Source: Sedimentisphaerales bacterium (lineage in GTDB: Bacteria > Planctomycetota > Phycisphaerae > Sedimentisphaerales > SM23-30). Taken from it: 64,000 nt of DNA. A model generated the notes under the pieces. The model was given only the letters and a program-made list of their open reading frames with translations, did no database searches and was not told where the DNA came from. The translations under genes and the position numbers were made by a program. The DNA lies in the NCBI GenBank assembly GCA_963663965.2, contig CAXXFK010000022.1:1-64000 (forward strand), in the 5' to 3' direction. Positions 1,545-52,265 of this stretch are shown here, piece by piece (the stretch's first letter is position 1; the number at the start of each line of letters is the position of its first letter).

Positions 1545-1563
1545 GAGAACAATTGCATAACTT

Positions 1564-2781: not shown

Positions 2782-2813
2782 AGATAAAACCTTTTTTAAA
2801 GTGGAGTCTGAAC

Positions 2814-3275: not shown

Positions 3276-3295
3276 TACTATGGAATACTGATTGC

Positions 3296-3943: not shown

Positions 3944-3968
3944 CTGATTAAAATTGTAATTTTGTTTA

Positions 3969-4565
3969 ATGAAATTATCGACGAAACAATTAACTTGCCC
4001 TTCTGCCTTCACCTTGATTGAGGTGGTGGCCAGTGTTACGGTACTGGTACTGATCCTCAGTGGCATTGTTGTGGGCTATAACCGGATGGTTACGCGAGTT
4101 TATGAACAATCATTGCGCGAACGGGCTCTGGCCGTTGCCCAGCGTCAGATCGAAATGATTATGGGCAGTGATCAGGAACCGGAAGGAACCGGCCTGTCCG
4201 GTCCGGATGAAATCGATCCCATCTTCAACTGGGAGATGGAATTAAAACGCGTTCCGGTTAATGAGGAAGAACAGCTGAATATTAAAAACTCGATCATACA
4301 GGCGACCGTCACGGTAAGCTGCAATCAGCCAACGGCCAGTCAACAGGAACCGGTTCGCATTCAGCGCTATTTCAGCAATCTCAAGCCCAGACCCGGCCAG
4401 CAATACGCGGTACCCATTCCCAGTCAATATGAAGAAGAGATGTGGTTTGTTGAATTACGCCAGCGACTGGGCCGCGATCCCACCCCTCAGGAAGTTCTGA
4501 CCGAGTTTCTCAAAAATATGGAAACTCCCGACGAGATCATGGAAGAACTGGAGGGTGATGGCTGA
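3969..4565 (+). CDS. Minor pseudopilin, GspI-like
   Basis: A|FTLIEVV N-methylation motif; operon position. Confidence 0.72.
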   Translation: MKLSTKQLTCPSAFTLIEVVASVTVLVLILSGIVVGYNRMVTRVYEQSLRERALAVAQRQIEMIMGSDQEPEGTGLSGPDEIDPIFNWEMELKRVPVNEEEQLNIKNSIIQATVTVSCNQPTASQQEPVRIQRYFSNLKPRPGQQYAVPIPSQYEEEMWFVELRQRLGRDPTPQEVLTEFLKNMETPDEIMEELEGDG

Positions 4566-5161
4566 TGAATCGTCCTCATCGACAAACGAGGTATAATCAT
4601 CCGCGGGCCATTTCTACCCTGGAAATGATTGTAACCCTGACAATAGCCGTTTTGGTCATTACCGCTGTGCTGGCGATTTATCGGAATACCGTCAGGAGCA
4701 GCGAAGACATGTCCCAAAATGCCGCCCGTCAGGCCGCCACCATGGCCTGTCTCGACCGGATGATGGATGATGTGATCAATGCTTCGTTTGCCCAACCCAG
4801 CGTGCGTGTTGCCGGATCCGGTGAGGGTAAGACCCATTTAATTATCCAGACTCTGCCCGGTTCGGTTGATACAGTACCAACCACCCAGGTGGAATGGGCT
4901 GCGGTTCCCGGCGACCTGGAAGATGAACTGGTTTTGTACCGGCGTGAATATATTGGCGATGATGCCAAAAATGCCCTGTATATCCCGGTCTGTGAACATC
5001 TGATGGCCTTTGACGCCGAACTATTCAATCCCGAAGGGTTGGATGACCCCAACGCCCCGCCTTCCATGCTCGATGTCCAGTTAACCGTCTTTCGGGATGA
5101 ACCGCCATCGCCCGACCGCGTGTTTACCGTTTTTCGAACTTTTTGTCTCAGGAGACGATAG
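4565..5161 (+). CDS. Minor pseudopilin, GspJ-like
   Basis: A|ISTLEMIV motif; TGATG coupling to upstream gene. Confidence 0.68.
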   Translation: MNRPHRQTRYNHPRAISTLEMIVTLTIAVLVITAVLAIYRNTVRSSEDMSQNAARQAATMACLDRMMDDVINASFAQPSVRVAGSGEGKTHLIIQTLPGSVDTVPTTQVEWAAVPGDLEDELVLYRREYIGDDAKNALYIPVCEHLMAFDAELFNPEGLDDPNAPPSMLDVQLTVFRDEPPSPDRVFTVFRTFCLRRR

Positions 5162-5206
5162 ACGCATAGCTCACCCGATGTGTAACGATCTGATTTAAAG
5201 AAAACC

Positions 5207-6649
5207 ATGTTAAACGTAATCTCCAAAAACCTGAAACCATCCAGAAACCGGCAAGGTTTCACCATGTTGTTAACCATCATGGTGTTGCTGGTTCTGATTA
5301 CCGTGGTGGTTACGTTCCAATTGGATATGTTCTTACGTATTCGCGCCAGCCGCTATCGCGAAGCCAAGGTCCAGTGTCAGTACGCGGCTGAATCCGGGTT
5401 GGTAATGGCCTTTAAAATGGTGGAACAGGCGCTGGAAGCTCAGCGTAAAGGTGACTTCAAAGCGATCTCATCCATCATGAAGAAACAGCAAGAAGCCGCG
5501 GCTGGCGGCCAGACTGCCTCAGAAGCGGATCAATCGGCTAAAGAGGGTGAGGAAACCAACGGCGAAAAATCCGAACTCGATAAAATGCTGGATGAACTGG
5601 CTGATCCCAATTCGGTTCAGGATCCCAATGAAGTGATAGATAACCTCGATAAAGCCGTGGATGAAACTGATCTGGAAACCATGGCGAAAGATCTGGAAGA
5701 AGACCCCATCTTCGATCCCGAGGCGTTTCTGGATCCCAATCGTCTGGCGGAGATGCTCGAAACCGGCGAACTGCTTGACATGGTACCCATTGACAGCCCA
5801 CTGGTTATTTCCAAAAAGGTGTTTGAGGTTGGTGATGCCAGTGTCGAAATTGAGGTATTCGACGAAAATGCCAAATTGCCGCTCCACTGGAATATCGATT
5901 CGCCCTATCTGAGCGGAGTGGAAAAAGATAAGGATCTGGTCGCAAAACTGGGCCGGATCTTACAGGTGGATAATAAAGTCACTGCCACGGCCCGCGATCT
6001 GATCGGAAAATACAGCCGGACCATTCCGGTAAAAGGAATTCGTAAAGTCATCTATCAGCGCCAGGGCGCCAGCCTGAACTTTCGGGGGCCCAACAATCTT
6101 TCCAATGCCCTGCAGAACCGGCCCATGGTCTGGGAACAGCAGCGCCTGCGCTTGTCGTACAGCAAGGCCCGCGAGATGGAAGATCAGCAGCGCGAGATGA
6201 TGGCCGCGTTAACCGCACGGGTCAATTACGAACTTGCCGAAGATGACCAGCTCGCCGATCTCCTCAATGTTCCGGTCGGATATCAACAGGGAGTATTCCT
6301 GGATTACATTGGCGCCTGGGGTCACGATAAAATAAATTTGAATACGGCTCCGGCCGAAGTGTTAGAGGCTGCGTTTGGTATCATGGGAGTCGATAGCCGG
6401 ATGGCTCAGGCCATTATCGACCGCCGTGATCAGAAGCCTTTTGCCAGTACCTACGAACTCAAACAGACCGACGGGATTAGTGACGCCGCCGTTAGCGGAT
6501 TAATCGCCTTGACCACTGTCCGTAGCGATACGTTTTCCATTCATATCAAAGCCATCCAGGGCCAGTGTGAATGTCGGTTATCGGCCGGTATTTATCGCGA
6601 TCGCCTGGGTAAAATCAAGACCATTGCCGTTTTTAAACCCAAAGGTTAA
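5207..6649 (+). CDS. gspK: Pseudopilin GspK with long acidic insertion
   Basis: G|FTMLL leader lacking Glu5, AAESG, DENAKL, KINLNTAPAEVL, AQAIIDRR...PF, TVRSDTF. Confidence 0.85.
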   Translation: MLNVISKNLKPSRNRQGFTMLLTIMVLLVLITVVVTFQLDMFLRIRASRYREAKVQCQYAAESGLVMAFKMVEQALEAQRKGDFKAISSIMKKQQEAAAGGQTASEADQSAKEGEETNGEKSELDKMLDELADPNSVQDPNEVIDNLDKAVDETDLETMAKDLEEDPIFDPEAFLDPNRLAEMLETGELLDMVPIDSPLVISKKVFEVGDASVEIEVFDENAKLPLHWNIDSPYLSGVEKDKDLVAKLGRILQVDNKVTATARDLIGKYSRTIPVKGIRKVIYQRQGASLNFRGPNNLSNALQNRPMVWEQQRLRLSYSKAREMEDQQREMMAALTARVNYELAEDDQLADLLNVPVGYQQGVFLDYIGAWGHDKINLNTAPAEVLEAAFGIMGVDSRMAQAIIDRRDQKPFASTYELKQTDGISDAAVSGLIALTTVRSDTFSIHIKAIQGQCECRLSAGIYRDRLGKIKTIAVFKPKG

Positions 6650-6728
6650 AGACAATCGATAAAAAGAATAGATTAAACCATGTATAATCAATTGAATCAT
6701 AGCATAAAAAACCAACAAGGAGCTTGTC

Positions 6729-8183
6729 GTGGCAAGTAATCGATGCCTCGGAATATACATTGCCCCCGGCCGTATCACGGCTGTGGCGGTCGATAAAAGC
6801 GGTAGCCAGTGGAACAGCGCCGGCGTTGTAACCGTATCAGACTCGGACCTGTCCGATGAGCGGCAGGGGGATATCACCTCTCTGATCGAGTTGCTGGCAG
6901 ATCGAGTCACGGGAAAATTCCCAAACGTCTCTCAGGTAGCCATCACCCTGGACAGCTCTTATTATCAAAGCCAGTCCTATATCAGTCAGTTCGACGATCT
7001 GCGTCAGATCCGCCAGACAATCCGTTTTGATATCGAAGAGGAGTTTGCCATCGATGCCGAAGGGGTTACGATTGCCTATCTCCCGGTCCCAACGGATAAG
7101 CCGGGTACGCGTCTGATGGTTTATACCGGTGATACCTTCAGACTGCTCGAATTATTCGGCAGTCTGGAAACCGCCGGTCTGGATGCCTTGGCCGCAGAAC
7201 CCGAAATCGAATCCTGGCGGCACTGGCTGGATCAAAACCGGGAAAAGGGCAATGAAACTTCTATCACCCTGGCCTGTTTAAACGATGGTATGTATATGAT
7301 CGTTCAGGACCAAACCGGTAATCCCGTGGTGATGAGGAGTTTCCCACTGCCGCGTCAGAGCGATTTTGTCGAAATGGCTGCTGCCGAAATACGCCGCAGT
7401 ATCATGACAATGGATGATATGCCCCGTCTGATCTATTATCATTCCACCGAACTGGACAATTCTGCCATGCAGGACCTGGCTGCCCGTTTATCCATGACAG
7501 CCAGGCCAGTTACCTCGCCGCCCATGAACGAAGTCTTCGCGCTGGGTGTCGGCATCGGTATGCTGGATAAACAAATCGCCGCTGATTTCCGTCAGGATAA
7601 CTTGCCCTCGCGCACGGCCCAGCGCAGCCAGAACCGGTCCATGTGGAGCGCGACGGCGGCCGTTTGTACCTTTCTGCTGGTCTGGATCGGAGTTGTCTTT
7701 TTCCATGGTCGCCAATACCAGTCATTTGCCCAAATGGCCGGTAAAGACATCGATACTGCCTGGCGCAAGTCGGTGCCCAATCAGGAAATACCCAAGAGAA
7801 ATATCGACAAAATCCTGGAAGGCGAATTAACCAAGCTCCGAAGGCAATTTCGTGGCCAGGAGGTTGAGTATATTTCGGATTCGGCCGGCCAGACTTTGAT
7901 GAATATGCTGCTATTCCTGAACCAGATTTCTGATGATATCGGATTGCAGATCGAAAAAGTAAGCGTCAATCCGGAAGGGGTCTACGCCTTTTCCGGCTCG
8001 ATTAAAGACCTGGCCGCTTTCGACCAGTTGCGTGAAACGTTGCGTACCTGCGGTATTCCGCTGGAAGTGGACCGGTCCAGTTTTGAACCACCCAGCGGGG
8101 CTACCCGATCTTTCAGCATGCCGTTACGATTAGTGACAACTACCCAGGTAGCGTCATCAGGTAAATCACCGGCGACAAAATAA
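6729..8183 (+). CDS. GspL/PilM-PilN-like assembly platform protein
   Basis: Actin-like N-terminus (LGIYIAPGRITAV; QTIRFDIEE), one TM, periplasmic C-terminus; follows gspK. Confidence 0.7.
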   Translation: MASNRCLGIYIAPGRITAVAVDKSGSQWNSAGVVTVSDSDLSDERQGDITSLIELLADRVTGKFPNVSQVAITLDSSYYQSQSYISQFDDLRQIRQTIRFDIEEEFAIDAEGVTIAYLPVPTDKPGTRLMVYTGDTFRLLELFGSLETAGLDALAAEPEIESWRHWLDQNREKGNETSITLACLNDGMYMIVQDQTGNPVVMRSFPLPRQSDFVEMAAAEIRRSIMTMDDMPRLIYYHSTELDNSAMQDLAARLSMTARPVTSPPMNEVFALGVGIGMLDKQIAADFRQDNLPSRTAQRSQNRSMWSATAAVCTFLLVWIGVVFFHGRQYQSFAQMAGKDIDTAWRKSVPNQEIPKRNIDKILEGELTKLRRQFRGQEVEYISDSAGQTLMNMLLFLNQISDDIGLQIEKVSVNPEGVYAFSGSIKDLAAFDQLRETLRTCGIPLEVDRSSFEPPSGATRSFSMPLRLVTTTQVASSGKSPATK

Positions 8184-8211
8184 CACGATAAAACCAGGAG
8201 TTACAAATAGT

Positions 8212-8733
8212 ATGGAAATTAATTCTGAAACATTCCGCAAATCGGAAACCTGGGCGATTCTGACCCCGATCATTTTACTTTTGATTGCCGTCACCATGAC
8301 CATGGGTATGGTCGATGCCCAAAAACAATCCGTCAATAATATCAGGCGTGCCGAAGGCATCGTAAAAGACGCGGCAGAAATTATCAAATTGCGTCAGCAG
8401 GCGGCCGCTCAGGGCCTCGCCGAACAGAAGGTCCGGCCCTTCGATACCGTTAATTCAGCATTGGAGGCCGCCACCGCCGCCGGCATCAGCGATACGAAAA
8501 TTTACCGCGGCTCCAGCCCCACAGCCAAACGCTTAAAAGATGGCTCCCTGCAATATCGCGAAACCTACAAAATCAATCATGTCATGATGTACCAGATCGC
8601 GTCCTTTATCGATTACGCCGAACGAAATTATGAGTCCCTGCGTTGCACCGATGTCAGTATCGTCCCATCGCCCGATCTCAAAAGCAAAGACTCCTGGGAT
8701 GCCAACATCAACTTCCTGTACATCAAAAAGTAA
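8212..8733 (+). CDS. GspM/PilO-like protein
   Basis: N-terminal TM, coiled segment and small domain; last gene of the operon. Confidence 0.55.
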   Translation: MEINSETFRKSETWAILTPIILLLIAVTMTMGMVDAQKQSVNNIRRAEGIVKDAAEIIKLRQQAAAQGLAEQKVRPFDTVNSALEAATAAGISDTKIYRGSSPTAKRLKDGSLQYRETYKINHVMMYQIASFIDYAERNYESLRCTDVSIVPSPDLKSKDSWDANINFLYIKK

Positions 8734-11811: not shown

Positions 11812-12287
11812 TTAAATATTGCTTTTTATCGGTTAATACCGTTTACGATTGAAAATGCCCGCTGGGCCGTGAAAGAAGTCTTTTGCGAGTATTTACTTAT
11901 GTTGCGAGCGATCAGGGATTTTTATACTCTTTGGGTATAAACCAGGAATAAATTTATTCCGAAAGAGAAATAACCATTTTTTAGTTTGTTTGGGATTATT
12001 TGATAACGCGGAGGCTGGGAGTTTCGACCAGTTCTTGGAATAGGTTCGTATAGGTTAGTGTGAGTGAGGAAGTGTAAACATTTCCTTCAAACGGTACACA
12101 TGTTTATTGGTGTGGACAGGTGTTTCGGCCTGTTCGTGGCTTATATTTGATTGAGATATTATGAGTGAGGATATGAAAATATTTAATTATTACGATACCA
12201 GCTGACAGGTCTTGATTTCAATAATGTTAGTTCAATAGTGTGTTTAAGTTGTACGGAATTTTACTTTTTTTTATGGAGAAATGAAAA

Positions 12288-14384
12288 ATGAAGAAAACAA
12301 AAACAATGTTCATGTGGCTTGTCGCGGCGTTAATCGTTGTCCTGACCGGCCAGAGTTGGGCGGCCAACATGATTTCGCTCAACTTCAGCGAAAACTCCGG
12401 TAACCAGCGTTTCGTCGGTGGCGAGCTGATCGGTCCCTTGAAAACCGATAGCGCCAACTGGAATATGTCCGACGATTACGATAGTGGTGATCTGGGCAAC
12501 GGTTCGATAACCGACCTGATCGACGATACCGGCGCCAATACCGGTGTCAGTGTCACCTGGACCAGCAGTGGCGTATGGTATAACGAAGATGGTACCGGGG
12601 ATGATGAACACCGCATGGCCGTGGGATATCTCGATGACTGGTCAGAAATCAGCATTACCTTTTCTAATATTCCCTATACCTACTACCGGGTCTATTGTTT
12701 GCTGGGTTCCGACTGGGGCTCACCGGTAGGATTTGCCGACCAGCAGATTAACGGCACCTGGGTGATGGGTGGCGAGGCGGCGGATAATACTCAGCAGTTT
12801 AATGCCTCGATTACGGATAATAACGCCGCCAATGGTGAATGGTGGACCCCGATGGTCGCCGGCTCTTCAGTAATCGGTAATTACTGGGTACAGGAAGCGG
12901 ATGGACCATCATTAAACATTAAAGCACAGGTCCATCTGAATGGTCAGTCATTTCGTGGTACTGTCAACGCGGTGATTATCGAAGAAATTGATATCTACCA
13001 GGCGATGGAACCCGATCCTGCTATCGGCGAAGAAGTGACGATTGATAAAGTGCTTTCGTGGTCGCAACATCATGGTTCCGTTGGAACGGGTGTGACCTAT
13101 CAGGTCTATCTGGGCAGCGATCCCAATACCTGGGATGCCGCTCCGGTCAAAACCACCACCGCCGATCCGGCCGATTTCTTCTTCGATCCCGATCCCGACC
13201 TGGCCAAAGGTACCGCTTATATCTGGCGTGTCGATGCTCTGGAACCCAATGACGGCGCCCCGGTTCTCCATACCGGCGCTGTCTGGACCTTCACCACTCA
13301 GCCCGATACCGCCCGGGTCGAAACCGATCCGGCCAGTATGGTTATCCCCGCCGGTATCGATGCCCAGTTAACCGTTGCCACCCTCAACGCCACGATTTTC
13401 CAGTGGTACAAAGACGGGGCCGCGATTGATGACCAGACCGATACTAAATTCATTGGCGAAGACAGTGCGGCACTCACGATTGTCGATCCTCAGTTGGAAG
13501 ATGAAGGTTACTACCATTGCGTCGTCGATAACAGTCTGGGTATTCCCGATACCTCTGCGGATGCCCGCGTGCTGACCCGGCGCTTGATCGGCTGGTGGAA
13601 GCTCGATGGCAACCTGGAAGACTCCGTCGATTCAGCAATTGCCGGCGCGCCCGCTCACGATGGCGCCTCCGTTGATCCCAACTTCGTTGATGTCGGCAAA
13701 GACGGCGGCGCCCTCGATCTGCTCGGCGATGCCGACGGTCTGGTGACCATGCCCGGCACGGCCGATTATTTCAACTTCTATCCGTTGGGTTATACCGTCA
13801 GCGCCTGGGTTAAGGCCCCGGAAAAAACCTCTGGTTGGGGTGCCTATGTGGCCAAACAGACCAAAGTTGGCACCAATATCGGCTTTATCCTGACTCACAA
13901 TAGTGCCGGCCAGGCCGTCCATACCCTGCGCCAATCCTTTGGCGATCTCAACTCTAATACTGACATCGACGATGATGAATGGCATCTGGTAGTCGGTACT
14001 TATGACGCCACTACGCGCCAAGGCAAGGTCTACGTGGATGGTTTCAGCAGAAATGCCACCATTAATAATGGTATTCCCGGTACCAACACCGCTGATCTTC
14101 TGCTGGGCGCTGAAGTGCCCACTGGCAATGATCTGGTTGCCTTTATTGGCCAGTTGGACGATGTCCGGCTTTATACCTACCCGCTGGATCCGGTTACCAT
14201 TGCCAATCTGTATGTCGATTTCAATCCGGGCGAAGAAGTCTGTACCGAATATCCTGAATACGATATTGCCGGTCCGGACGGCGTTGGCGATGAATTCCGC
14301 GATTGTATCGTCAATATCTACGACCTGTTGCCCGCCATTGATGCCTGGCTGGAATGCAACATCGTGCCCACTTGCATCCAGTAA
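12288..14384 (+). CDS. Secreted protein with Ig-like and LamG (concanavalin A-like) domains and dockerin-like tail
   Basis: Signal peptide; Ig motif FQWYKDG...DEGYYHC; LamG DDEWHLVVGTYD and FIGQLDDVRLY; DCIVNIYDL...WLEC tail. Confidence 0.8.
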   Translation: MKKTKTMFMWLVAALIVVLTGQSWAANMISLNFSENSGNQRFVGGELIGPLKTDSANWNMSDDYDSGDLGNGSITDLIDDTGANTGVSVTWTSSGVWYNEDGTGDDEHRMAVGYLDDWSEISITFSNIPYTYYRVYCLLGSDWGSPVGFADQQINGTWVMGGEAADNTQQFNASITDNNAANGEWWTPMVAGSSVIGNYWVQEADGPSLNIKAQVHLNGQSFRGTVNAVIIEEIDIYQAMEPDPAIGEEVTIDKVLSWSQHHGSVGTGVTYQVYLGSDPNTWDAAPVKTTTADPADFFFDPDPDLAKGTAYIWRVDALEPNDGAPVLHTGAVWTFTTQPDTARVETDPASMVIPAGIDAQLTVATLNATIFQWYKDGAAIDDQTDTKFIGEDSAALTIVDPQLEDEGYYHCVVDNSLGIPDTSADARVLTRRLIGWWKLDGNLEDSVDSAIAGAPAHDGASVDPNFVDVGKDGGALDLLGDADGLVTMPGTADYFNFYPLGYTVSAWVKAPEKTSGWGAYVAKQTKVGTNIGFILTHNSAGQAVHTLRQSFGDLNSNTDIDDDEWHLVVGTYDATTRQGKVYVDGFSRNATINNGIPGTNTADLLLGAEVPTGNDLVAFIGQLDDVRLYTYPLDPVTIANLYVDFNPGEEVCTEYPEYDIAGPDGVGDEFRDCIVNIYDLLPAIDAWLECNIVPTCIQ

Positions 14385-14426
14385 ATCATAACCGCCTCTG
14401 AGCGGCTATGGACCCGATGTAATCAC

Positions 14427-14457
14427 AGAAGCCTGAGAGCAATCTCAGGCTTCTTTT
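14427..14457 (+). terminator. Intrinsic terminator
   Basis: AGAAGCCTGAGA-GCAA-TCTCAGGCTTCT followed by a T-run, between convergent genes. Confidence 0.8.
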
Positions 14458-14534
14458 CTGCGCGTGTATCATGGGCATCTTGCCCGTGATACCAGGTTCC
14501 ATGCCGCTTACCGCGGGATAAATAACTGGCAGGT

Positions 14535-16169
14535 CTACCGATCCGTTATCACCAGCACCCAATCGTTCCGGTCAAAGGTCTTAAAGGTCAGGTTTGGCTG
14601 CTTGATCTGTTCTTCGCCCAGCCATCCGCCCACTTTCGGATTATACCACCGTGCCTTGCACCCCGGCTTTAGCAGGTTCGTGTTTAAGATCACCTGGCCT
14701 CCCTCAGGCAGATAGACCACCGCCAGATCGCCCGTCCTGGATTTCGCCGCCGCGATAAACTGTGACTTGTTCTGCTTGCCCGGCTGTTCGACGAGCAATT
14801 CTGGCGCGGGTCTCAATTCCCACCAGTCGATCGATTTAAAGAGACGGTGCAGGTACATCATACTGAACGCTCCGGGCAAATCTTTCGCCTCATACCACGG
14901 CGCTCCCAGCCCCGAGCTCACATGATCCGCCGGCGCCTGTACCTTTTCGTGCCATCCCCAGATCCCCTGCCCGCCATAAGTCACCCCGGCGGTTGGTGAT
15001 ACCAGCAAACTCCAGTACGCCGCCCGCCTCACCGAGTGATCGTCATGGGCGCGTTTATTTTGATAACCGTTGTGGCCTTCATAATTCGGCTCGATATTGA
15101 TCACCGGCAGCATCGGATCCCCGTTCCAGTCCCTGCTGGGCGGCCCCTGGTTCAACCAGCCGAAAGTACCCTCGCTATCGCCATGCCCGCTCTGATACCC
15201 GATAAAACGATACCAGGGCTCGCCTCTGAACTCATCGCCGATCCAGCTCTGGCCGCGCGGATGCATGGTCGCCAGCCGCTGTTGATCGGCCCGAAACACT
15301 TTCCTGCCGATTCGCTTCCATTGTGCCGCGTTATCCCCCTCGAAATTGCCGTCGCCTCCCAGGAACCACAAAACCTGGTACGCGCCATACCTCGCGATCA
15401 TATACTCGGCCAGAATAACTTTCTGTTCTTCATCCAGGTAATAGCCCGGATTCCTGTCACCCTGGATTCCCCACAACAGAACCGGCGCCGCCAGCAGTCC
15501 CGCCTCGTTGATCGCCGCGACATACTGATCGAGCCGCTGAAAATAGGTCGGATTGATTTTGATCGTCTCTTTCCCCCAGAATGTAACATTGCCGTCCGCG
15601 TCATGTTCCGCCATCCGCCATTGGGTCATGACAAACTGGATGGCGGTAAACTCCTTCTTCACCCGGTCCTCGAGGAACACCTTCCAGTCCTGGTATTCGG
15701 CAAACAGCGGTCCGCACCATACCGTATCCGCCAGCCAGAAAAATGGGGTTCCATCGTCAAAGGAAAGATAGGTCCCCGACTCCGATACCTTCAGGTTACC
15801 ATGCCGATAAATGCCATTCTTCCCGCGGTAGGCCACACACTCGAATTCTCCGGTAACCCCGGCCAGACCCTGGTTGGTTTTGTCTGAACATTTTGTCGTA
15901 AATCGCCATTTTCCCACCTCATCAGGCGCAAACCGGACCTGCCACAACCTGCCGCCATTCCAGTAACCCTGCATCGTCCGTTCCTTCCCGCTCGGAGATT
16001 GAAACACAACCGAAAGCCTAACCTCCTGAACCGGATTCGCGTATTCGACCTCGCTGACAAAATCCCGCTCAAACACCATCCACCGCTGCACCTCGCCACC
16101 CGCATCGGCAAGTACGGCAAGTATAGTTATTATCATAAAATAAATTGGTGTCTTAATTGCCATGATCAA
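14535..16169 (-). CDS. DUF5060/DUF4038 apiosidase-like (GH140-related) glycoside hydrolase with C-terminal collagen-binding-like domain
   Basis: DGTPFFWLADTVW, WFLGGD, YQSGH, EPNYE, RRAAYWS, GVTYG, ARWYNP...DWVLVI. Confidence 0.8.
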   Translation of the reverse strand: MIMAIKTPIYFMIITILAVLADAGGEVQRWMVFERDFVSEVEYANPVQEVRLSVVFQSPSGKERTMQGYWNGGRLWQVRFAPDEVGKWRFTTKCSDKTNQGLAGVTGEFECVAYRGKNGIYRHGNLKVSESGTYLSFDDGTPFFWLADTVWCGPLFAEYQDWKVFLEDRVKKEFTAIQFVMTQWRMAEHDADGNVTFWGKETIKINPTYFQRLDQYVAAINEAGLLAAPVLLWGIQGDRNPGYYLDEEQKVILAEYMIARYGAYQVLWFLGGDGNFEGDNAAQWKRIGRKVFRADQQRLATMHPRGQSWIGDEFRGEPWYRFIGYQSGHGDSEGTFGWLNQGPPSRDWNGDPMLPVINIEPNYEGHNGYQNKRAHDDHSVRRAAYWSLLVSPTAGVTYGGQGIWGWHEKVQAPADHVSSGLGAPWYEAKDLPGAFSMMYLHRLFKSIDWWELRPAPELLVEQPGKQNKSQFIAAAKSRTGDLAVVYLPEGGQVILNTNLLKPGCKARWYNPKVGGWLGEEQIKQPNLTFKTFDRNDWVLVITDR

Positions 16170-16393: not shown

Positions 16394-16784
16394 TTATTTA
16401 CTATCTAAACTTGAAGCCTTATTATTAAAGAGCAACTCTACTTTGCTATACCATGGCCAATTATAGTACATTTGCTTGTAACCAACGGTTATATAATAAT
16501 ATTGGTCTCCAATGTGTGAAACAGGAATTCTACATTGCGGTTCCATGTATGTAGTTTCAACATGGAATAAGCATATGGCAAAAAGAACCGTAATAATTAA
16601 TACTATCATACTTTTAGATTTGTTTTTACCAGCCAAATAGGATACCCAAAAACTAACGGTTACTAAGAGTAAGTTAAGTGATAACATGATAAAATTAGTC
16701 GCATTAAGAGTGAGTATGCTTTGATTATCATTTAACAAACGATTCCATAAAGCAATTATCCAATATAAAGTACCTAAACAAAAG
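16394..16784 (-). pseudogene. 5'-truncated membrane protein gene cut by IS66
   Basis: The frame of ORF 16394-16738 stays open upstream (FCLGTLYWIIALWNR) to the IS boundary at 16785; hydrophobic segments; low GC. Confidence 0.55.
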
Positions 16785-18248
16785 GTAACAATTCACACTT
16801 TTTTTTAAAAAAACAAGAAAAAGATTGCGCCCTGCACAACCATCTGTTATACCATAAGTTATGGATGACAAAGATATTGTTATAGCGCAGCTGCTCCAAG
16901 AGGTCGCTTCCTTACGCGAAGAAGTAAGGCAGCTCAAAGAAGAAATTGCTCGGCTCAAGAAAGATTCGAGCAATTCGTCCAAGCCGCCCTCGAGTGATAT
17001 TGTCAAACCCAAGAGGCCTTCCGCTAAGGCTAGTCGCAAAAAACGCAACCGGGGTGGCCAGCATGGGCATAAAAAGTTTTCGCGTCAACCGTTTGAAGAA
17101 GTTGACCACACATTTGAATACGAGTTGGCAGACAAAGACGCCGTGGGCCTTAAGCCTCTGGATGCCTGGTTTGTCATTCAACAAATCGGATTGCCGGAGA
17201 AAATGTACCAGGTGATTGAGCATCGAGCCAGAAAGTACCGAAACCCTGTGACAGGAAAGGTCCAGATCACCCCCTTGCCGAACGAGATTCGTAAAGGGGG
17301 ATTGCTGGGTGCGGACCTGACGGCGTTGGTGTCCTATTTGAAAGGCGCCTGCCATATGTCGTATAGCACCATTCAGGGTTTTTTCCAGCAGGTGATGAAG
17401 CTGGAGGTTTCTCGCGGCATGCTTGGCAAGGCGGTTCAGAAGGGATCGAGCGCCTTGGGCCGATCGTATGATGAACTGGCCGACCGATTGCCGAACGAAC
17501 CGCAGGTCAATATCGATGAGACAGGCCATCATGACAATGGCAAGCTGCACTGGACCTGGTGTTTTGATACCGGCGCCTACAGTTTGTTTAAGATTGATCC
17601 GTCGCGCGGCAGCGGCGTGCTGGAAACCATGCTTGGTAAAACCTTTGCCGGGATCATTGGGGCCGATTACTGGGGCGCCTATCGCAAGTATGCCCGGTTG
17701 TTTGGTGTTCGTGTTCAGTATTGCATGGCTCACTTGATTCGAGACGTTCGTTTTCTGGCCGAGCATCGCGTGCCCGCACTGTCTCGCTGGGGAACAAAAT
17801 TGCTGGCATGGCTCAAAAAACTGTTTGACACCCTGCATCGGCGGGACGCCTTGACGCCACCGGGCTGGTTGCGTTCGATGGCGCGCCTCAAAACCGGCTT
17901 TTTGAAGCAAATGCGAAGGCCGCCGAATCACAAACTGGCCCAGAAACTGGCCAAACGATTTAAGGGCAATGCTGCAACCGATTACTTCCGATTTTTGACG
18001 GAGCCGGCTGTCGAACCCACCAATAATGGCACGGAGCGCCAAATTCGCACCGTGGTGATTGACCGACGGATCACGCAAGGAACGCGCGGCCAGGCAGGCA
18101 TGCGCTGGTGCGAACGCATCTGGACAACAATAGCAACCTGCAAAAAACAGCGTCAGAATGTCCTTGATTTTATCCATGAATCGATTATTGCTCATTGGAG
18201 CAACATAAAATATCCATCGTTAATCTGTCAGAATGTGTGAACGGTTAC
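16785..18248 (+). mobile_element. IS66-family insertion sequence (single ORF, ISBst12-like), 1464 bp
   Basis: Terminal inverted repeats GTAACAATTCACAC (16785) and GTGTGAACGGTTAC (ends 18248) enclosing an IS66 transposase. Confidence 0.88.
16861..18240 (+). CDS. IS66 family transposase
   Basis: KDSSNSSKPPSSD leader, GGQHGH, IDETG, ADYWGAY, QYCMAHLIRD, EPTNNGTERQIR. Confidence 0.93.
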   Translation: MDDKDIVIAQLLQEVASLREEVRQLKEEIARLKKDSSNSSKPPSSDIVKPKRPSAKASRKKRNRGGQHGHKKFSRQPFEEVDHTFEYELADKDAVGLKPLDAWFVIQQIGLPEKMYQVIEHRARKYRNPVTGKVQITPLPNEIRKGGLLGADLTALVSYLKGACHMSYSTIQGFFQQVMKLEVSRGMLGKAVQKGSSALGRSYDELADRLPNEPQVNIDETGHHDNGKLHWTWCFDTGAYSLFKIDPSRGSGVLETMLGKTFAGIIGADYWGAYRKYARLFGVRVQYCMAHLIRDVRFLAEHRVPALSRWGTKLLAWLKKLFDTLHRRDALTPPGWLRSMARLKTGFLKQMRRPPNHKLAQKLAKRFKGNAATDYFRFLTEPAVEPTNNGTERQIRTVVIDRRITQGTRGQAGMRWCERIWTTIATCKKQRQNVLDFIHESIIAHWSNIKYPSLICQNV

Positions 18249-20316: not shown

Positions 20317-21900
20317 CTATTCATCGATGACTATGAATTCCTGCGGCATCCTATCTTTCAACCAAGGTTGTTCTGCTAGTAACCATTGCTCCATCTGTTG
20401 ACGGACTGATTCATCGCACTCTTTTTTGAAATTCAATTCATTCTCTTGTGTCCATATCTTACGAATTTGCCATCTTTGCTGCTCCCGCTTCTTCGAGAAA
20501 ATGGCTAATTTTTTTATGGCTGCTAAATTCACCCTATCATTAATTAAGTTACCATCTTTATCTAAATATTTCTTTTGTACCTCTGATTCCACCAGATCCT
20601 CCAGTTCTTTATCATTCATATGCACCCAATCAGGAATAACCTGGATGCCGAAGTGGCCCCCTTTTTGTGAACGGTTTCTCATAACCTGGCTCAACAGCTT
20701 CGATTGAAAACGCCCATAAGTCTTATCATAATCGTGCCCCAAATATCGATAGCCCAGTTTATTGGTCCCCACTTCGACAGATAGAATCTTCTTGGTATGT
20801 GTTTTAGATTGACCGTCAATAAAATGACGCCTGCTTTCCTCTACCACATAGAACCATAAATTACTATAAACCGGGTACGGTCCCCCACTATCCTTAAGGG
20901 TCACATGTTTGATGTCCAAGTCGATAGAGCGTAAATCTATACCATAAATAGAACCATCCCCACTGTTTTTAGAGTTAATATTCTCTGTTGCAATTCCATT
21001 ATCCTTAAGAAAAAACTCGACTTCTGGCAGATAGCCTTCCGTAGGAGCAACCCAAACTGGTCGGTCAGTCAGGACAAATCCACTGTCTTGATTCAGGGCT
21101 TTTAGCGATACTGAATAACCGTCATCCCTGGGATGTACTTCTAAATAACACTCTGCCTCCCAAATAGCAGATTTTGGATGTAAAGGCTTTTTATTAGAAG
21201 AGATAGAATCCTCGTAATCAGCAATCAGTCGGGAGCGTAACGGCGTATTTCGAGGCACAGGCAAATCGCTAAAATCCCCCTTATAATAATTGGAATATAT
21301 AGGCCGATTATTGCTGCTGAATATATGGGTTTCATGTCGAATGGCATAGCGATTTAAGTAATCGCCATAGACGGATAACAAAATGTCGTGTTCTTGAGGC
21401 TCTGAAATATCATACCACCCACCGCTACCCTGTTCACTATGGTCAATGCCAGGAACGGGCTTTTTCAGCATATAATATATAAAAGGCTGCTCAGGAGAAA
21501 ATCCTATCCTATTGAGCTGGGATCTGTTAAAATAAAATCTTGATTTGTTAGATGTTTGCAAGTCGTAGTAGCCAGTTTTTCTGAACGATTGGATACGAAA
21601 CATATATCCTCTCGCCTTGTATTCAAAACAACCGTTTTCATCGGTTGACATTAATCCTTCCTTAATACCAAATTCGGGTGTCATAATTTTTGAAAGGAAA
21701 TAATAGTTATATGACCAGGGAACTACTACTCCTGACAAAGGTTCTTTTGTATCATAGTCTAAAATACATCCATAAAAGGTAAAATCGTAATTGGATGCCT
21801 CAATTTCCTGCAATAACGATGATGAGGCGCCCTTTTCCATCACCTGGCATCCAGCAGTCAATGCGAAGAACAAGTTAATAATAACTATGGCTCGATACAT
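20317..21900 (-). CDS. Hypothetical lipoprotein with carboxypeptidase-regulatory-like N-terminal domain
   Basis: Lipobox LTAG-C; FTFYGCILD...PLSGVVV...TDENGCF; low GC. Confidence 0.65.
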   Translation of the reverse strand: MYRAIVIINLFFALTAGCQVMEKGASSSLLQEIEASNYDFTFYGCILDYDTKEPLSGVVVPWSYNYYFLSKIMTPEFGIKEGLMSTDENGCFEYKARGYMFRIQSFRKTGYYDLQTSNKSRFYFNRSQLNRIGFSPEQPFIYYMLKKPVPGIDHSEQGSGGWYDISEPQEHDILLSVYGDYLNRYAIRHETHIFSSNNRPIYSNYYKGDFSDLPVPRNTPLRSRLIADYEDSISSNKKPLHPKSAIWEAECYLEVHPRDDGYSVSLKALNQDSGFVLTDRPVWVAPTEGYLPEVEFFLKDNGIATENINSKNSGDGSIYGIDLRSIDLDIKHVTLKDSGGPYPVYSNLWFYVVEESRRHFIDGQSKTHTKKILSVEVGTNKLGYRYLGHDYDKTYGRFQSKLLSQVMRNRSQKGGHFGIQVIPDWVHMNDKELEDLVESEVQKKYLDKDGNLINDRVNLAAIKKLAIFSKKREQQRWQIRKIWTQENELNFKKECDESVRQQMEQWLLAEQPWLKDRMPQEFIVIDE

Positions 21901-21919
21901 AATTAATTCCTATAAAAAT

Positions 21920-22270
21920 TTAGTTAGTAGGCACAACATCTAAATCACAATCATAAATCAAATTGCTCCAGTATGAATGCGTATCAATAATATCTGACTG
22001 GAATTGAAGCGAATGTCCAATTCCTCGATCGCCAAACTCATTAAACACTCTACCGGGCAAATTGGGCATTTCGATTAATCCCATGGGCATGTACCTGGAA
22101 GGGGCAATATGAGTAAATATATAAAAACGATCCTCAGGGAAGAAATAGGCAGTAGTAATCTCATTAACCCAGTCTTCTATATACTCACAAAATAAATCAT
22201 ACGAATAACTATCGATCCAAGTCCCGTGTTGCGGTTTAGTAGGCCCCTGAGTATAGATAGTATCTGGTCT
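21920..22270 (-). pseudogene. Start-less 116-codon open frame, probable orphan C-terminal gene fragment
   Basis: Hand translation RPDTIYTQGPT...DRFYIFTHIAPSRYMPMG...DIIDTHSYWSNLIYDCDLDVVPTN*; stop ~20 nt upstream of the lipoprotein start; not in the ORF track. Confidence 0.5.
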
Positions 22271-22442
22271 TTATAAATCACAGAGTATATTATTTTATTG
22301 ACAACTCCTGAAATCAACATAAATCTTTAAAAACAAACCCTTAAGATCAAGTCCGTCGAATTTTGCATCTAAGATAAACCAAAAAACAAATACACAAATT
22401 AACAATTAATAAGTTAGATAATATAATAATTATATATTTAAT

Positions 22443-22471
22443 TTGACTCAGACTGCAACTCAGTCTATAAT
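22443..22471 (+). promoter_or_regulatory. Near-consensus sigma70 promoter with inverted repeat in the spacer
   Basis: TTGACT-N17-TATAAT; AGACTG-N5-CAGTCT at 22450-22466; AT-rich upstream region. Confidence 0.75.
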
Positions 22472-22565
22472 ACCAAAGTCGCCTTAATAGCCCCAGACCA
22501 CTCGCCAACCCCCGGCGTGTCCCGCCCCAACCGGCCACGCCCGCAGACCCCCTCTGCGCATGGAC

Positions 22566-23353
22566 CGTGGCACCTTCAGCTTGTGGGGGCATGCATGGCC
22601 AGTGCTATCTGATGCAGACCAGAACCAACCAGCCAATTTATTTTGACTGTTAATAAGTTACGAATGAAATGGAAACCAACAAAAACAAAACAACCCAACA
22701 ACCCAGCCATAAAAGGCTTAAAAACGTAGCATGGGCTTCCAGCCCATGTGTATTGTTCTCCATAGATAATGGGCAACCCCCGGTTGCCCATGCCGCAGGT
22801 CCGCCGTAGCGGGTTGGTCTAACCAGCCATGAGCGCAGCGAATACCAACAAAAAACGAAACGTTGAGCACAGCGAAATCCCGATCTATCGGGAAACCCAA
22901 TGCCAAAAAAATGATCATAACAATATCAATATCAAGCACTTATATCGATATGGGTGCCACCTTCAAGCGCAGCTTGTGGGTGGATTCGTCGCTTTGTGAA
23001 CTCCAATGTGAACTGAGCTTATCAACAATAAAAACAACATCCGCCTCAAGGCGGATTCAAATAATATCTCGAAGAGATCAAATGTAAATAGCCCCCCAAT
23101 TCATTGGGGGGGATAGACGAACCAACGTTTAAAAAATTAAACCCACGCCTCGTAGAGGCGTACCGCCAGGATATCTCGCATAAGAGATAGATAAAACAAC
23201 ATGAGCGCAGCGAATACCGAAACGAAACGAACCCAATATGAAAAAATATCACTCTAACCCCAACATAAAAATGAACTTAACCAAAATAATTTCATCCGCC
23301 AAATGGCGGATACCACAATTTTGCATTTTAAATTCTAAATTTTAAATTTCTAA
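22566..23353. repeat. Cluster of heterogeneous REP-like palindromes and short repeats
   Basis: GTAGCATGGGC-TTCCA-GCCCATG (22726), ATGGGCAACC-CCC-GGTTGCCCAT (22769), TCCCGAT-CT-ATCGGGA (22878), ATCCGCC-N4-GGCGGAT (23039, 23294), CCCCCCAAT-TC-ATTGGGGGG (23092), CATGAGCGCAGCGAATACC twice (22828, 23200), heptamer run 23319-23353. Confidence 0.75.
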
Positions 23354-23368
23354 ACAGGAGGTACTACC

Positions 23369-24208
23369 ATGTCATCGTCACTAAGAAGACTCAGAGCCAA
23401 CCGTCGCAACGCCCAGAAATCCACCGGCCCCAAAACCCCCGAAGGCAAGGCCATCTCATCGAAAAACGCCATCAAGCACGGCCTCAGCGGCCAGGACCCT
23501 GCCCATCTCATCGTTCCCGGCGAATCCGAACTCACCTACCTCGAATTCCGCGCCGCGTTGCTGCAAGACCTCAAACCCACCACCTATCTCCAGCGCCACA
23601 TCGCCGACCAGATCGTCTCGGCCGCCTGGCGACTCGAACGACTCGGCCGCATCGAAGCCGAAATGGTCGACGCCCGCGTCTACCAACTCCGGCTCACCAA
23701 CGAAGAAATCCGCAAAGATACCGTCATCGACCAGCCCTTCGCCCATTCGAGTATCTATCTCCCACGTCACAACGAGGTCGGCGCCGCCTTCACCCTCGAA
23801 ACCCCCGCCTTCAACTGCCTGGCCCGCTACGAAACCCACCTCAACCGAATCTTCCAGTCCAAACTTAAACTCCTGCAACAGTTGCAATTACAACAAAAAC
23901 CAAACGAACCCAACGCCTACCCCCCGGAGTACCCATTTCCTGAATTACCCCGCGTCCACATTCCCGACCCGCCAAAAATCCCCACACACCCCAGCGAAGC
24001 CAAATTAGCCCCCGAATACATCAAAGACCGACTCCCCGAATTGATGAAAGACCACAGCGTAACTGACGACCAGGTATTCAGTTACGCCTGCAACCGCTAC
24101 GAGGCCCTCACCGATTTCGCTAACCAGAACGGCGAAGAAGCCCTCCACGCCCTCGGCATCCCCACCAAACCCCCAGCCGACATCCCCATCCAGGAGGAAA
24201 AGAAATAA
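23369..24208 (+). CDS. Hypothetical protein with N-terminal ANRRNAQKSTGPKTPEGK...NAIKHGL motif (HGGxSTG-like)
   Basis: AGGAGG RBS; motif plus AAWRLERL...EA and LARYETHLNR helices; extremely C-rich codon usage. Confidence 0.8.
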   Translation: MSSSLRRLRANRRNAQKSTGPKTPEGKAISSKNAIKHGLSGQDPAHLIVPGESELTYLEFRAALLQDLKPTTYLQRHIADQIVSAAWRLERLGRIEAEMVDARVYQLRLTNEEIRKDTVIDQPFAHSSIYLPRHNEVGAAFTLETPAFNCLARYETHLNRIFQSKLKLLQQLQLQQKPNEPNAYPPEYPFPELPRVHIPDPPKIPTHPSEAKLAPEYIKDRLPELMKDHSVTDDQVFSYACNRYEALTDFANQNGEEALHALGIPTKPPADIPIQEEKK

Positions 24209-24432
24209 GGGTATCCCAAAATACTATAACCTGAATAAATACCCATGGATTGATCCCATAGTTCAAACCATCCAGATGATCTGCGCACCTGCCTGCAAGT
24301 ACCACTCTAAGCTGAACAGGTTTCGAGTATAAGTTTTTACCCGTAAAAGACTTATTTCACGGCTATGCGGGCATGATCAATCGTTAATAGGTTATAGAAA
24401 ATCGTCTTGAAGTTTGTCGGTATGCTACTATT

Positions 24433-26116
24433 ATGGGGGATGTGATTTTAAATCTGATTAAGCTATTGAATGGAGCTATGGGTATGCATGGTAAATGGAA
24501 TTTTGTGCCGATTGTCTGGATGATTGTGGCGGTGATGTTTTTGGGCGGGGCGTTGGCGATGGGGCAGGTTCAGGATGGGATGATGGCGGGGTACCTGCTG
24601 GTGCCGCAGGAGCGGGTGGCGGAGAGTTATAACGCGGGATTTTCGATGTATGTGGCGGCGTGGCCGCTGTTGCGGGAGTATCCGGGGGACCGGTTTCAGA
24701 CGGGATTGTTCGGGACGTGGATGCACGCGTGGTATGATGATCCGAAGCCGGAGGGGAAGTTGTATTCGGATATTGAGGGTGGTTTAGGTTGGTGGCGCGA
24801 TACGCGGTTTGCCACGGAGACGCCGAAGTTTATTATGGGCGGGGTGGCGTTGAATTTCTGTGAATGGGCGAACGGGCCGGGGGCCGGCAAGGGGCGGGAC
24901 TGGGACCAGCCGCGGGGTAAATATGGGGTGGCCCAGTTGAGTCCGTGGGTGTTGTGGCCGCCGGATGGCTTGAATCTGAAACAGGGGACCTGTGGGCAGT
25001 TGTTTGGTTATGGTTATTTGCCGCTGCCGCTGACCGAGCCGAAAGTCCGGACCGCCGGGAAGGCGGTTCCGACGGGGAATCAGTGCTGGACGTTGTTTTT
25101 GAATACGGCCAATTTTAAGGGGCCAGTGGCGTTTTTTACGCCTTATTTCTGGTCCGGGCCGTCGGTGAATGATCCGGCACTGGCGGGGCTGTTTTTGGAT
25201 ACGCGGCCGGCGAATCCGAACCGGGCGTTGCAGATGGAAACCCAGTATGTGCCGGGCAGGCAGTCGTTGGACGCGAAAGGGCAGACCTACGCGCGGATCG
25301 CGCCGGTTTCGTTTCCGCGCAGTGACGCGGGGGTTTCGCCGCTTATCCACCGGGTGACTTCATATAACAAAACGGCGCTGTGGGATAAGGTGGCGGCGTG
25401 GTTTGAGGGTGGACCGGAGGCGGATGGCCGGATCGATCCGGCAGGCGCGGCGGTGCATACGTTTCCGGGGCGGGGGGGGAGCGACCTGGAAGATTTATAC
25501 GAATGATGTTCCCAATGAGCAGCGGCGGCCGGTGGACTGGAAGGCGTTTGCCAGTCCAACGGCTATCGATGAGGTCACTTATGGGTACCAGTGGGATGAA
25601 CGGCTGGTGATGAGAAATGATTCAGGAGATGGGTCTTTGTTTACGCTGCCGGAATTTTACCGTCTAGTTAGTGAAGAGCAGCGGTGGATCGGGGTGAAGG
25701 AAGATGAAGTTCCGGCTGAAACCGGGTTAGGTAAGGTACGTTTTGCGCGACCGGCGGCGAAAGCCTCCGAGGCTTATGTGACCCCGGAGGAGGCGGATAG
25801 CTGTTGGAAAAAGCCCGGGCCGGTGGCGGGGCCATTTATGGCGTATCCGGGGGATGGGAGTGTGGTGACGTATTACTGGTACCGGTTTGCCGATCAGCCG
25901 GCGTTATTGAATGCGGATTTGAGTGAGCAGGAGCGGGAACGGTTGCAGGAGCGGGTCGAGAAAATCCATCGAAACTGGAAGAAGGATCGGACGTATCTGA
26001 CGCCGCCGTCGATGGGAAAGTTGGCAGAGATTGATCCGGCGTTGATTGTGACGCCGCCGAGTGGGATGGAGATTGGCTATGTGCCAATTGTGACCCGGCA
26101 GGGGATGAAAGAATAA
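24433..26116 (+). CDS. Exported hypothetical protein, split by a frameshift at G8 (25472-25479)
   Basis: ORFs 24433-25506 and 25403-26116 join at the G-run; signal peptide-like N-terminus; Trp/Gly-rich. Confidence 0.6.
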
Positions 26117-26232: not shown

Positions 26233-27588
26233 TTATTTGCCGATGGCTTTCATCATAACTTTGAAGACATCGGTATTGTCAACGTAGCTGCCGGAGTAGC
26301 CCCAGGAGCGGGCGGCGGCAACGTCGGTACCACGGGTGAGCCAGAGGAACTCTTCGCAATGTGGGGCCGCGAGCGTAAAGAGGGACCAGAGCGTTGGTGT
26401 GGCCGGTACTATAATGTTTGGCGGCAGGGACCTGGCCTTTGCCTTGGGTTCTGGGCAGGTCGAAGGGGGTCTGGCTGCGCTTGCCGGCCTGGGTGCCCCA
26501 TACTTTGCCGCATTCGTGGTCGGAGGTGACGATGATGAGGGTGTCCTCGAGTTTATTGTTTTCGGTGAGCCAGTCGATAACGGCCTGTACGGCGTGATTA
26601 AAGTCCTGTTGTTCTTCGACGGGCGCGGGGCAGTTTGTTTGTCATGATTAGCCCAGTCAACGGCGCCGCCTTCGATCATGAGATAGAATCCGTCGGGATC
26701 CTGGCCAAGGATATTGAGGGCAGCGCGAGACATCACTGACAGGTTGGGTACTTTACCGTTGGGAGCGTCACTGGAGCGCTTTTGCTGAAGGGGTGCTGCC
26801 GACGCGGGCGATGCCCAGATAACGTTTCAGTGGGGGATTGGAGGTTTGCGCCAGTTTGTTCAAAGTCAGCCTTGTCTTCAATGAAGGTCCAGGGCTCTTT
26901 TTCACCCTTGCGAATGCTTTCTAATAATGGCAAGTCAATGTATTTGTCTTTGGGTTCTTGGAGTTGCTGGCCGTCGTCATCATAGTCGGGATAGCCCGCT
27001 CCGAAGATGACATCCAAGCCACTGTCGAGAATCATTTCGCTGGCAATTTCGGTATATTTGTTGCGGGATTGATTGTGGGACCAGACCCCGGCGGGGGTGG
27101 CGTGACAGAAAGGGACAGTAGTCACAACGCCTGTGCTCTTGCCCATGCCATCGACAATCTGGGCGAAAGTTTGCAGTTTAGCGCCATCCGGTTTCACACC
27201 GAGCATGCCATTTTTAGTTTTCTGACCGGTGTTCAAAGCTGTGGCCGCCGCGGATGAGTCTGTGGGTTTTTTTATTGCTGTAATCAAAATCAGCCCAGAA
27301 AGTGTCGGGATCATAGCTTCCACCATCGGACCAGGTAGTACAAGACATGCGAATCGGGAAGGTGTCATAGGGTTGGTGGCCGAGTTCGCCAAATTCGTAA
27401 TAGCTGGCACAATCGAAGGTATTAAAACCGGCACCGTCAGTGATCATTAAAATGACGTTCCTGGCCTCTTTGGCAAGCCCAGTTGCCTGCATCGAGACCA
27501 GGGTAATTAGAACCAGACATAGGGTACGGTATGCCTTGGTATAGACTCTGTTTATGGGGTAATATCTGGTAATTTCTTTTTTCGTCAT
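26233..27588 (-). pseudogene. phoA: Alkaline phosphatase with multiple frameshifts (possibly sequencing errors)
   Basis: NVILMITDGAG, TDSSAAATAL, VTTVPFCHATPA, GFYLMIEGGAVDWANH, VDNTDVF distributed over ORFs 27214-27588, 26733-27434 and 26233-26736. Confidence 0.8.
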
Positions 27589-51076: not shown

Positions 51077-51138
51077 TTGGCTAACCTCATAAAATTTCAA
51101 TCAAAGAATAGATATCTGATCCAGGTTCCAAAGGCTGG

Positions 51139-52166: not shown

Positions 52167-52265
52167 CGATGCAACCCGTCCCTTCGATTGTAACCGGCCT
52201 TGGGAGCCAGTATTAAAGTAATGATGTTTTTTAATTTTAATCTGCATGCTAACTTGTTTCGTGTT

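Follow-up and report, generated by a model that had tools for sequence, protein, structure and literature searches.

Does the abrupt change of strand composition near 24.3 kb in this DNA mark a start of replication? The window, that is, the whole stretch analysed, comprises the first 64 kb of contig C22 (101.6 kb) in a Sedimentisphaerales assembly of 7.24 Mb and 42 contigs. At 24.2-24.4 kb its top strand turns from C-rich to G-rich, at the 3´ end of the "STGPKT" gene, which forms part of a multi-copy cassette and is followed on the same strand by a gene of opposite composition. An earlier note took this flip for a non-canonical replication start, or a hot spot of single-stranded DNA, at an orphan gene. 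The analysis points elsewhere. The flip is probably a local composite combined with a rearrangement, namely the edge of a reversed patch in a top strand that is G-rich over at least 273 kb, and the site is very likely not the chromosomal origin. Throughout, replication direction is deduced from skew alone.

The skew flip and the origin question

The flip itself is real. The 1-kb GC skew is -0.339 at 23001-24000, where the AT skew is +0.292, and rises to +0.203 at 24001-25000 and +0.275 at 25001-26000. All eight 60-nt lines that had been counted by hand proved exact on recount (for example, G11/C28 at 24121-24180 and G31/C9 at 24541-24600). The adjacent plus-strand genes are mirror images in GC skew at third codon positions (GC3 skew), with -0.65 for the STGPKT gene (23369-24208) and +0.65 and +0.63 for the two frames of its neighbour (24433-25506 and 25403-26116). 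Among 4373 long open reading frames (ORFs) genome-wide, 28 have a GC3 skew of +0.6 or more and 76 have -0.6 or less, a rarity that places the gene pair far beyond chance. The claim that the bias persists further out stands in part. The line counts behind it are exact, and the GC3 skew is positive in every window gene right of 24.4 kb. Genes at 12.3-21.9 kb range from -0.12 to -0.32, an insertion sequence (IS) excepted. Further left, the bias is weak and patchy (-0.14 to +0.04 for genes at 0.5-8.2 kb), and one counted line (13141-13200) falls inside a 2.2-kb inverted copy (98.9% identity) of another contig's DNA.

GC3 skew is a usable read-out of replication-linked history because its sign is independent of gene strand. 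In contigs of uniform skew, genes on either strand give +0.19/+0.25 where the contig is plus and -0.25/-0.15 where it is minus; codon positions 1 and 2 carry a separate coding-strand effect. The GC skew of whole contigs spans -0.145 to +0.174 across the assembly. Two-state skew segmentation of the genome yields 35 switches (19 minus-to-plus and 16 plus-to-minus), and none is called anywhere in the window's contig.

The DNA left of the window bears on the origin question. The starts of C22 (183 bases) and contig C32 (180 bases) match in reverse at 97.8% identity, which is the sole end-to-end overlap among the 42 contigs. The adjoining end of C32 carries a secretin gene and then the start of a gspE-like gene; gspF and gspG follow in the window. 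Secretion genes usually stand in the order gspD-E-F-G, and a split gspD-gspE operon in this order supports the join. In the resulting 273-kb scaffold (reverse complement of C32 plus C22), the cumulative G-C count starts at 0, has climbed to 12,446 by the end of the 172 kb that precede the window, drops to 12,224 at 10-20 kb, and ends at 17,510. The dip amounts to only ~220 G-C units within a rise of ~17,500, and the 24-kb "minimum" therefore sits in a long G-rich replichore. Scaffold GC3 skew lies between +0.23 and +0.39 at -60 to -40 kb, is ~0 between -30 and +10 kb, drops to -0.19 at 10-20 kb, and returns to values of +0.17 to +0.39 past 24 kb. The two window genes on which this part of the argument draws are as follows.

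1-1544, plus strand: gspE-like gene, 3´ part, with an MshEN domain (2-274) and a T2SSE ATPase domain (495-1544); its frame continues from the start of C32
55520-56863, plus strand: dnaA, with Bac_DnaA and Bac_DnaA_C domains, 31 kb right of the flip and flanked left and right by positive skew

An origin from which bidirectional forks leave at ~24.3 kb, 31 kb from dnaA, has several features in its favour. As in an oriC located by its cumulative GC-skew minimum (the Grigoriev method; 10.1101/808410), the polarity is minus-to-plus with C-rich DNA on the left and G-rich DNA on the right. The flip is also a local minimum, as the cumulative skew of the 101.6-kb contig taken alone has its minimum in the 22-24 kb bin, an AT-rich stretch is present at 22.29-22.47 kb, and dnaA lies within 31 kb. 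However, adding the neighbouring contig takes the minimum away from the flip; skew on the scaffold is positive across 172 kb leftward, and over the first 10 kb of the window GC3 skew reaches only about -0.05. A DnaA-box cluster is absent from the site, which agrees with the earlier statement that no TTATCCACA cluster occurs here: a scan that assumes an E. coli-type box finds one one-mismatch box (23019) in 21.9-24.4 kb, and the genome background is 0.32 per kb. The AT-rich stretch belongs to the conserved 5´ module of the repeated cassette (9/9 aligned copies), minus-to-plus switches number 19 in the genome, and the orthologous dnaA of the complete relative G004 lies within 140 kb of uniformly positive skew. 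The claim of a non-canonical chromosomal replication start thus fails on the scaffold skew, the DnaA-box scan and the relative's dnaA, and an origin at this site is extremely improbable.

Other features of the genome touch on replication initiation. The densest DnaA-box cluster (C27:54290-54840; 5 boxes with at most 1 mismatch in 600 bp) is AT-rich and immediately precedes a gene that is named DnaE-like (DNA polymerase III alpha) on its N-terminal sequence only; no skew switch occurs at this cluster. A second dnaA paralogue (C17:22871-23839) has 43% identity to the window dnaA. Both paralogues are present in nearly all of 20 relatives searched, and the record of the complete relative G019 begins at the second paralogue, not at the window's type. 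A coarse skew map of G004, drawn from 20 samples of 20 kb each, gave a noisy pattern that linked neither dnaA paralogue to an origin. In the window, an AT-rich 1.27-kb spacer (52848-54112; GC 0.33 over 53-54 kb) separates divergent pseudopilin-type genes; it lies 1.4 kb before the gene upstream of dnaA and holds a single near-consensus DnaA box (53840). The secretion genes themselves form two sets. One (1-8733, plus strand; gspE/F/G/K-like) continues the secretin gene of the neighbouring contig, and the other (48348-52847, minus strand) comprises a second secretin and three pseudopilin-like genes.

The STGPKT cassette

The gene at the flip is not an orphan. It occurs in 26 full-length copies in the genome, plus two fragments, and has 961 database homologues at E<=0.001, which are spread over several phyla, are all hypothetical or nameless, and carry no Pfam domain. 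The further proposal that promoter, hairpin array and gene form one undescribed system is borne out, as they make up a single repeated unit. The copy in the window is built as follows.

22265-24288, plus strand: one copy of the multi-copy cassette, ~2.0 kb (blastn of 20-27 kb against the genome)
22263-22284, plus strand: 5´ terminal palindrome TCTGGTCTTTATAA / TTATAAATCACAGA at the left edge of the cassette; leftward flanks diverge in 9/9 aligned 5´ modules
22443-22471, plus strand: predicted sigma-70-type promoter, TTGACT-17-TATAAT, 11/12 matches to consensus
22480-23355, plus strand: A+C-rich leader with a modular hairpin array; hairpins conserved across 26 copies
22729-22749, 22769-22791, 23039-23056, 23092-23112, 23142-23162 and 23293-23312, plus strand: leader hairpins from an inverted-repeat scan
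23369-24208, plus strand: 279-aa STGPKT gene, with a Shine-Dalgarno sequence AGGAGG at 23356-23361
24243-24288, plus strand: 3´ end module, a hairpin (24243-24261) and then conserved CTGCGCAC at 24281-24288

Homology among the copies starts at 22265-22279 and ends at 24208-24292 (blastn), and the flanks beyond are unrelated; in 26 aligned 3´ ends, similarity is gone after CTGCGCAC. The -10 region with its surroundings (AACTCRGTCTATAAT) is conserved in 9/9 aligned 5´ modules. Across the 26 copies, one leader stem takes two mutually compensated forms; the last hairpin combines a fixed stem with variable loops. An 11-mer, AACGAACCCAA, stands in the leader at 23226 and again inside the reading frame at 23903. 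A search of Rfam with the leader found no family at the gathering score and two chance-level matches (E 0.16 and 0.93). The base composition over 22265-24290 is A 658, C 628, G 352 and T 388, and all 26 copies are C-rich on the sense strand, with element skews of -0.21 to -0.32. Read in antisense, the leader segment 22729-23312 contains four hairpins (five scan rows, two of which overlap at one hairpin), each followed by a T-run. These are predicted intrinsic terminators for transcription entering the cassette from downstream, and 12 terminator-like sites are found in this segment versus 3.5 expected.

The other 25 full-length proteins are 93-96% identical to the window protein, and nucleotide identity is 85-93% in copy alignments that include the gene; the protein is therefore under purifying selection. 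Searches of the window protein against Pfam and NCBIfam returned no family. Its AlphaFold2 (AF2) model is all-helical with a predicted local distance difference test score (pLDDT) of 78. Foldseek found no fold match in the PDB at E<=0.001 (best E=1.4), a PDB profile search gave nothing beyond one match at E=0.31, and the ESM Atlas returned hypothetical clusters only. As far as Pfam, NCBIfam, Rfam, the PDB and the ESM Atlas show, the family is undescribed; the literature search was not aimed at it. Among 34 loci in other genomes, the signature 9-mer CGAACCCAA is near the homologues at 3, and constant travel of the family with this exact 9-mer was not confirmed in that set.

The copies are arranged with a strong preference relative to regional skew. 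On the sense strand, the 25 kb upstream are C-rich in 19/25 copies and G-rich in 0/25. The 25 kb downstream are C-rich in 13 copies and G-rich in 9, and the far-downstream flank is G-rich in 12/19. The earlier note had proposed to check whether homologues of the gene sit at skew minima. Within this genome they tend to do so: among 21 copies that have both flanks, 14 show a downstream minus upstream skew above +0.05 and 1 shows a value under -0.05 (Wilcoxon p=0.0004). The downstream skew exceeds +0.03 in 10 cassette copies, compared with 11% of 210 control genes picked for a C-rich upstream flank. The motif AACGAACCCAA is found 142 times in the genome versus ~4 expected, and 103 of its 121 scorable sites are on the regional C-rich strand. 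A motif locus lies within 5 kb of 7/19 minus-to-plus switches versus 1/16 plus-to-minus switches. This polarity split is suggestive; when all switches are pooled, a motif locus is within 5 kb at 8/35, which is not significant versus a random mean of 4.3 (maximum 13). Gene orientation was rejected as the cause of the flank asymmetry: of the upstream coding DNA, 127 kb run in the direction of the cassette and 162 kb run against it, and GC3 skew is independent of gene strand. The idea of a G-rich "halo" 3´ of the cassettes was dropped too, because in the other copies the first gene that follows is mostly C-rich.

A second A+C-rich cassette family has 14 copies, one at C22:69127-69912 (minus strand), outside the window, and 13 on other contigs. 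It encodes a 261-aa ORF with a low-complexity P/N/T/Q/H tail and has a hairpin module (window 22858-22901) and AACGAACCCAA in common with the STGPKT cassette. Of 13 scorable copies, 12 have their sense strand on the C-rich strand of the region, and the flank asymmetry of this family follows the same trend (6 versus 1, p=0.04). The genome also gives 18 Y1_Tnp-like matches. A subfamily of Y1-transposase-like genes has seven members (347-434-aa open frames with an HUH-like NHYHLIL), and two of them, C1:252092-253069 and C20:~164013, lie within 1.2 kb of plus-to-minus switches. At the reversed blocks C1:204-254 kb and C20:58-163 kb, an A+C-rich cassette lies within 4 kb of the other end.

The reversed patch and the readings of the flip

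The cassette is bordered by a single-copy gene on the right and a mosaic on the left.

24433-26116, plus strand: neighbour gene in two overlapping frames, single-copy
12267-14460, plus strand: recent inverted duplicate, 98.9% identity, copy of C36:29359-27167
14535-16169, minus strand: apiosidase-like gene, GC3 skew -0.27
16775-18248, plus strand: IS66-family insertion sequence that interrupts the reversed-skew genes; seven other copies at 98.9-99.7% identity
18195-20270, plus strand: HZS-alpha/PD40 protein gene, GC3 skew -0.22
20317-21900, minus strand: gene without an assigned family, GC3 skew -0.12

The two frames of the neighbour gene are probably one gene of ~560 aa with a frameshift; independent short-read contigs run across the point where the frames meet and show no indel there. 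Pfam and NCBIfam hold no family for this gene, which belongs to the G3-rich tail of the genome distribution that is typical of leading-strand genes. The reversed patch extends over ~12 kb. It is clear at ~12-24 kb and weak or neutral over ~40 kb further left, and the GC content per kb is uneven (0.37-0.57) in the 10-24 kb patch. The duplicate has a GC3 skew of -0.32 in the window and +0.33 at its home locus on C36, where the surroundings are at +0.2 to +0.5. As the C36 paralogue matches its home surroundings and was copied inverted, the -0.32 of the window copy is inherited. Right of the neighbour gene, an alkaline-phosphatase gene (26233-27434, minus strand) is split into two ORFs, and independent contigs differ by a 1-nt deletion at 27267. 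This gene is either broken or affected by homopolymer assembly errors. The secretin gene at the start of C32 is in several frames too.

The edge is sharp because the cassette, the G3-rich neighbour and the rearranged mosaic coincide at one point. Three causes would thus act together. A 2-kb copy of the 26-member cassette would contribute its intrinsically A+C-rich sense strand. Directly 3´ of it, a leading-strand neighbour gene from the far G3-rich tail would supply the opposite bias, and the leftward mosaic would add the inverted duplicate, the active IS and three genes of reversed GC3 skew. The patch and its terminal cassette may have been inverted together by a rearrangement whose breakpoint lay at the 3´ hairpin end of the cassette. 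In their preferred orientation, the cassettes would be transcribed head-on to the fork. Breakage at the 3´ end would then give rise to inversions after which the cassette borders a reversed block, so that only one switch polarity would be enriched. Their copy number and orientation suggest that the cassettes behave like replication-oriented mobile DNA.

Several points weigh against this explanation. The right edge of the patch is sharp and the genes at 12.3-21.9 kb are reversed except for the IS, but the left edge is unsharp and the skew passes through a near-zero zone of ~40 kb, which a single simple inversion does not predict. No inverted-repeat pair of at least 20 nt, through which homologous recombination could have acted, flanks the patch within 1-27 kb. 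The C32-C22 join rests on the 183-bp, 97.8% overlap and operon logic rather than on spanning reads. The ancestral arrangement is not visible in relatives, which are family-level only and have just dnaA in common with the window: when 46 window proteins were compared by tblastn with the 120-140 kb that surround dnaA in G004, G012 and G006, no common gene order emerged, and dnaA matched in all three beside six scattered weak matches (27-47% identity). Judged from the Pfam search and the all-helical model, the cassette protein is no recognisable transposase, and mobility is deduced from copy number and the dispersed, unrelated flanks only. The copies are ~10% apart in DNA with a conserved protein, unlike those of a recently active IS. 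For homologues elsewhere, the flank asymmetry is not significant in 26 loci of other genomes with both 10-kb flanks (13 versus 8, p=0.20). The gradual left edge and the missing bounding repeats call for caution and keep alive the reading of local DNA synthesis.

According to that reading, the cassettes are secondary DNA-synthesis starts or sites of recurrent single-strand exposure, for example transcript-primed or break-induced, which would imprint an origin-like switch over tens of kb. It would account for the 10 copies that are C-rich upstream and G-rich downstream (the reverse is seen in none) and for a reversed arm that fades gradually in several copies and on the left side of the window; at C33:44811 the values run -0.22, -0.29, -0.21, -0.10, -0.04 and on to +0.05, and C19:35381 behaves alike. 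The consensus promoter and conserved hairpins of the unit also fit. However, about half of the copies have no switch (9 have a downstream skew below -0.03), part of the reversed arm in the window is inherited from the inverted duplicate, and the first gene 3´ of other copies leaves no consistent halo. Pfam and NCBIfam detect no replication protein in the cassette, and its RNA would be C/A-rich, which is unfavourable to stable R-loops. Local synthesis is thus unlikely. Foreign acquisition of the 10-24 kb patch, with a composition set elsewhere and the cassette merely at its edge, is rather doubtful but slightly easier to accept. The IS66-family element (8 near-identical copies), the inverted paralogous segment, the uneven GC content and the genes without families are consistent with it. 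In contrast, one segment was copied within the same genome, the cassette and IS families are native to many contigs, and the genome-wide coincidence of cassette 3´ ends with switches is left unexplained.

An assembly error, either a flip of a segment between repeats or a false join of two loci within the repeated cassette, would be conceivable in a 42-contig assembly with an estimated contamination of 5.4%. For six cassette copies a contig end is no more than 10 kb away, frameshifts occur near contig ends, and repeat-bounded flips are a known source of skew inflections (10.1101/808410). Against it, k-mer contigs of run X1 bridge both flank-cassette junctions (20500-22327 and 24145-25496), although X1 is the only public run with this stretch and may be the source sample, so it gives no independent support for habitat or structure. 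The copies are resolvable at ~10% difference, and nearly all have the same orientation relative to skew, so that a chimeric join inside the cassette would give no sign change. With both junctions bridged and no inverted repeats around the patch, a flipped misassembly is very unlikely. Local composition combined with rearrangement remains the explanation that we favour.

Meaning and comparison with known systems

The cassette is of more biological worth than the flip. Its gene is present in 26 copies, is under purifying selection and belongs to a family of at least 961 proteins, all uncharacterised. The gene always comes with a consensus promoter and conserved hairpins, is oriented with the replication-linked strand asymmetry and is over-represented at one polarity of skew switch. 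For the location of origins, the flip provides a worked example of a convincing contig skew minimum that vanishes once the neighbouring contig is added, and repeated cassettes with an intrinsic strand bias can fake or sharpen skew minima in draft genomes. We tentatively raise a further possibility, to which we give modest credence, that STGPKT cassettes form a new class of replication-coupled mobile unit whose 3´ ends are polar hot spots of strand-polarity switching. Such hot spots would arise either from head-on fork collisions, with breaks and then inversions that make the unit co-directional, or from local DNA synthesis seeded by the cassette. If true, skew across a 7-Mb genome would be shaped by a dispersed gene cassette. 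Should the association with switches prove causal, the cassettes would offer a natural system for inversions driven by head-on transcription units or by single-strand mobile DNA.

The closest mobile relatives in behaviour are IS200/IS605 elements and the REP/BIME sequences and REPINs mobilised by RAYT Y1 transposases. Like these, the cassette exists in many dispersed copies, and as in IS200/IS605 and REP-RAYT systems it has hairpins at or near both ends (5´ palindrome and 3´ hairpin with CTGCGCAC). IS200/IS605 elements target the lagging strand and show an orientation bias, as described in two sources (PMC5027513; PMC3971601), and the cassette is likewise strongly orientation-biased relative to replication-linked strand asymmetry. 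The Y1_Tnp-like proteins encoded in the genome could serve it in trans. The cassette differs in that its own gene encodes no Y1/HUH enzyme by Pfam, NCBIfam or its all-helical model, in being a 2-kb unit that has a promoter and an extended modular leader of its own, and in its copies, which, unlike young IS copies, have diverged by ~10% in DNA with the protein conserved. Its flanks differ among copies.

The flip can also be compared with skew inflections inside one replichore, which 10.1101/808410 reads as misassembly at repeats or recent rearrangement. A short reversed block in a long uniform replichore with a repeat at its edge is common to both. In contrast to inflections that arise by inversion or misassembly, the patch has no bounding inverted-repeat pair and one of its edges is gradual. 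The cassettes, moreover, favour one switch polarity, which a simple repeat-mediated inversion does not predict.

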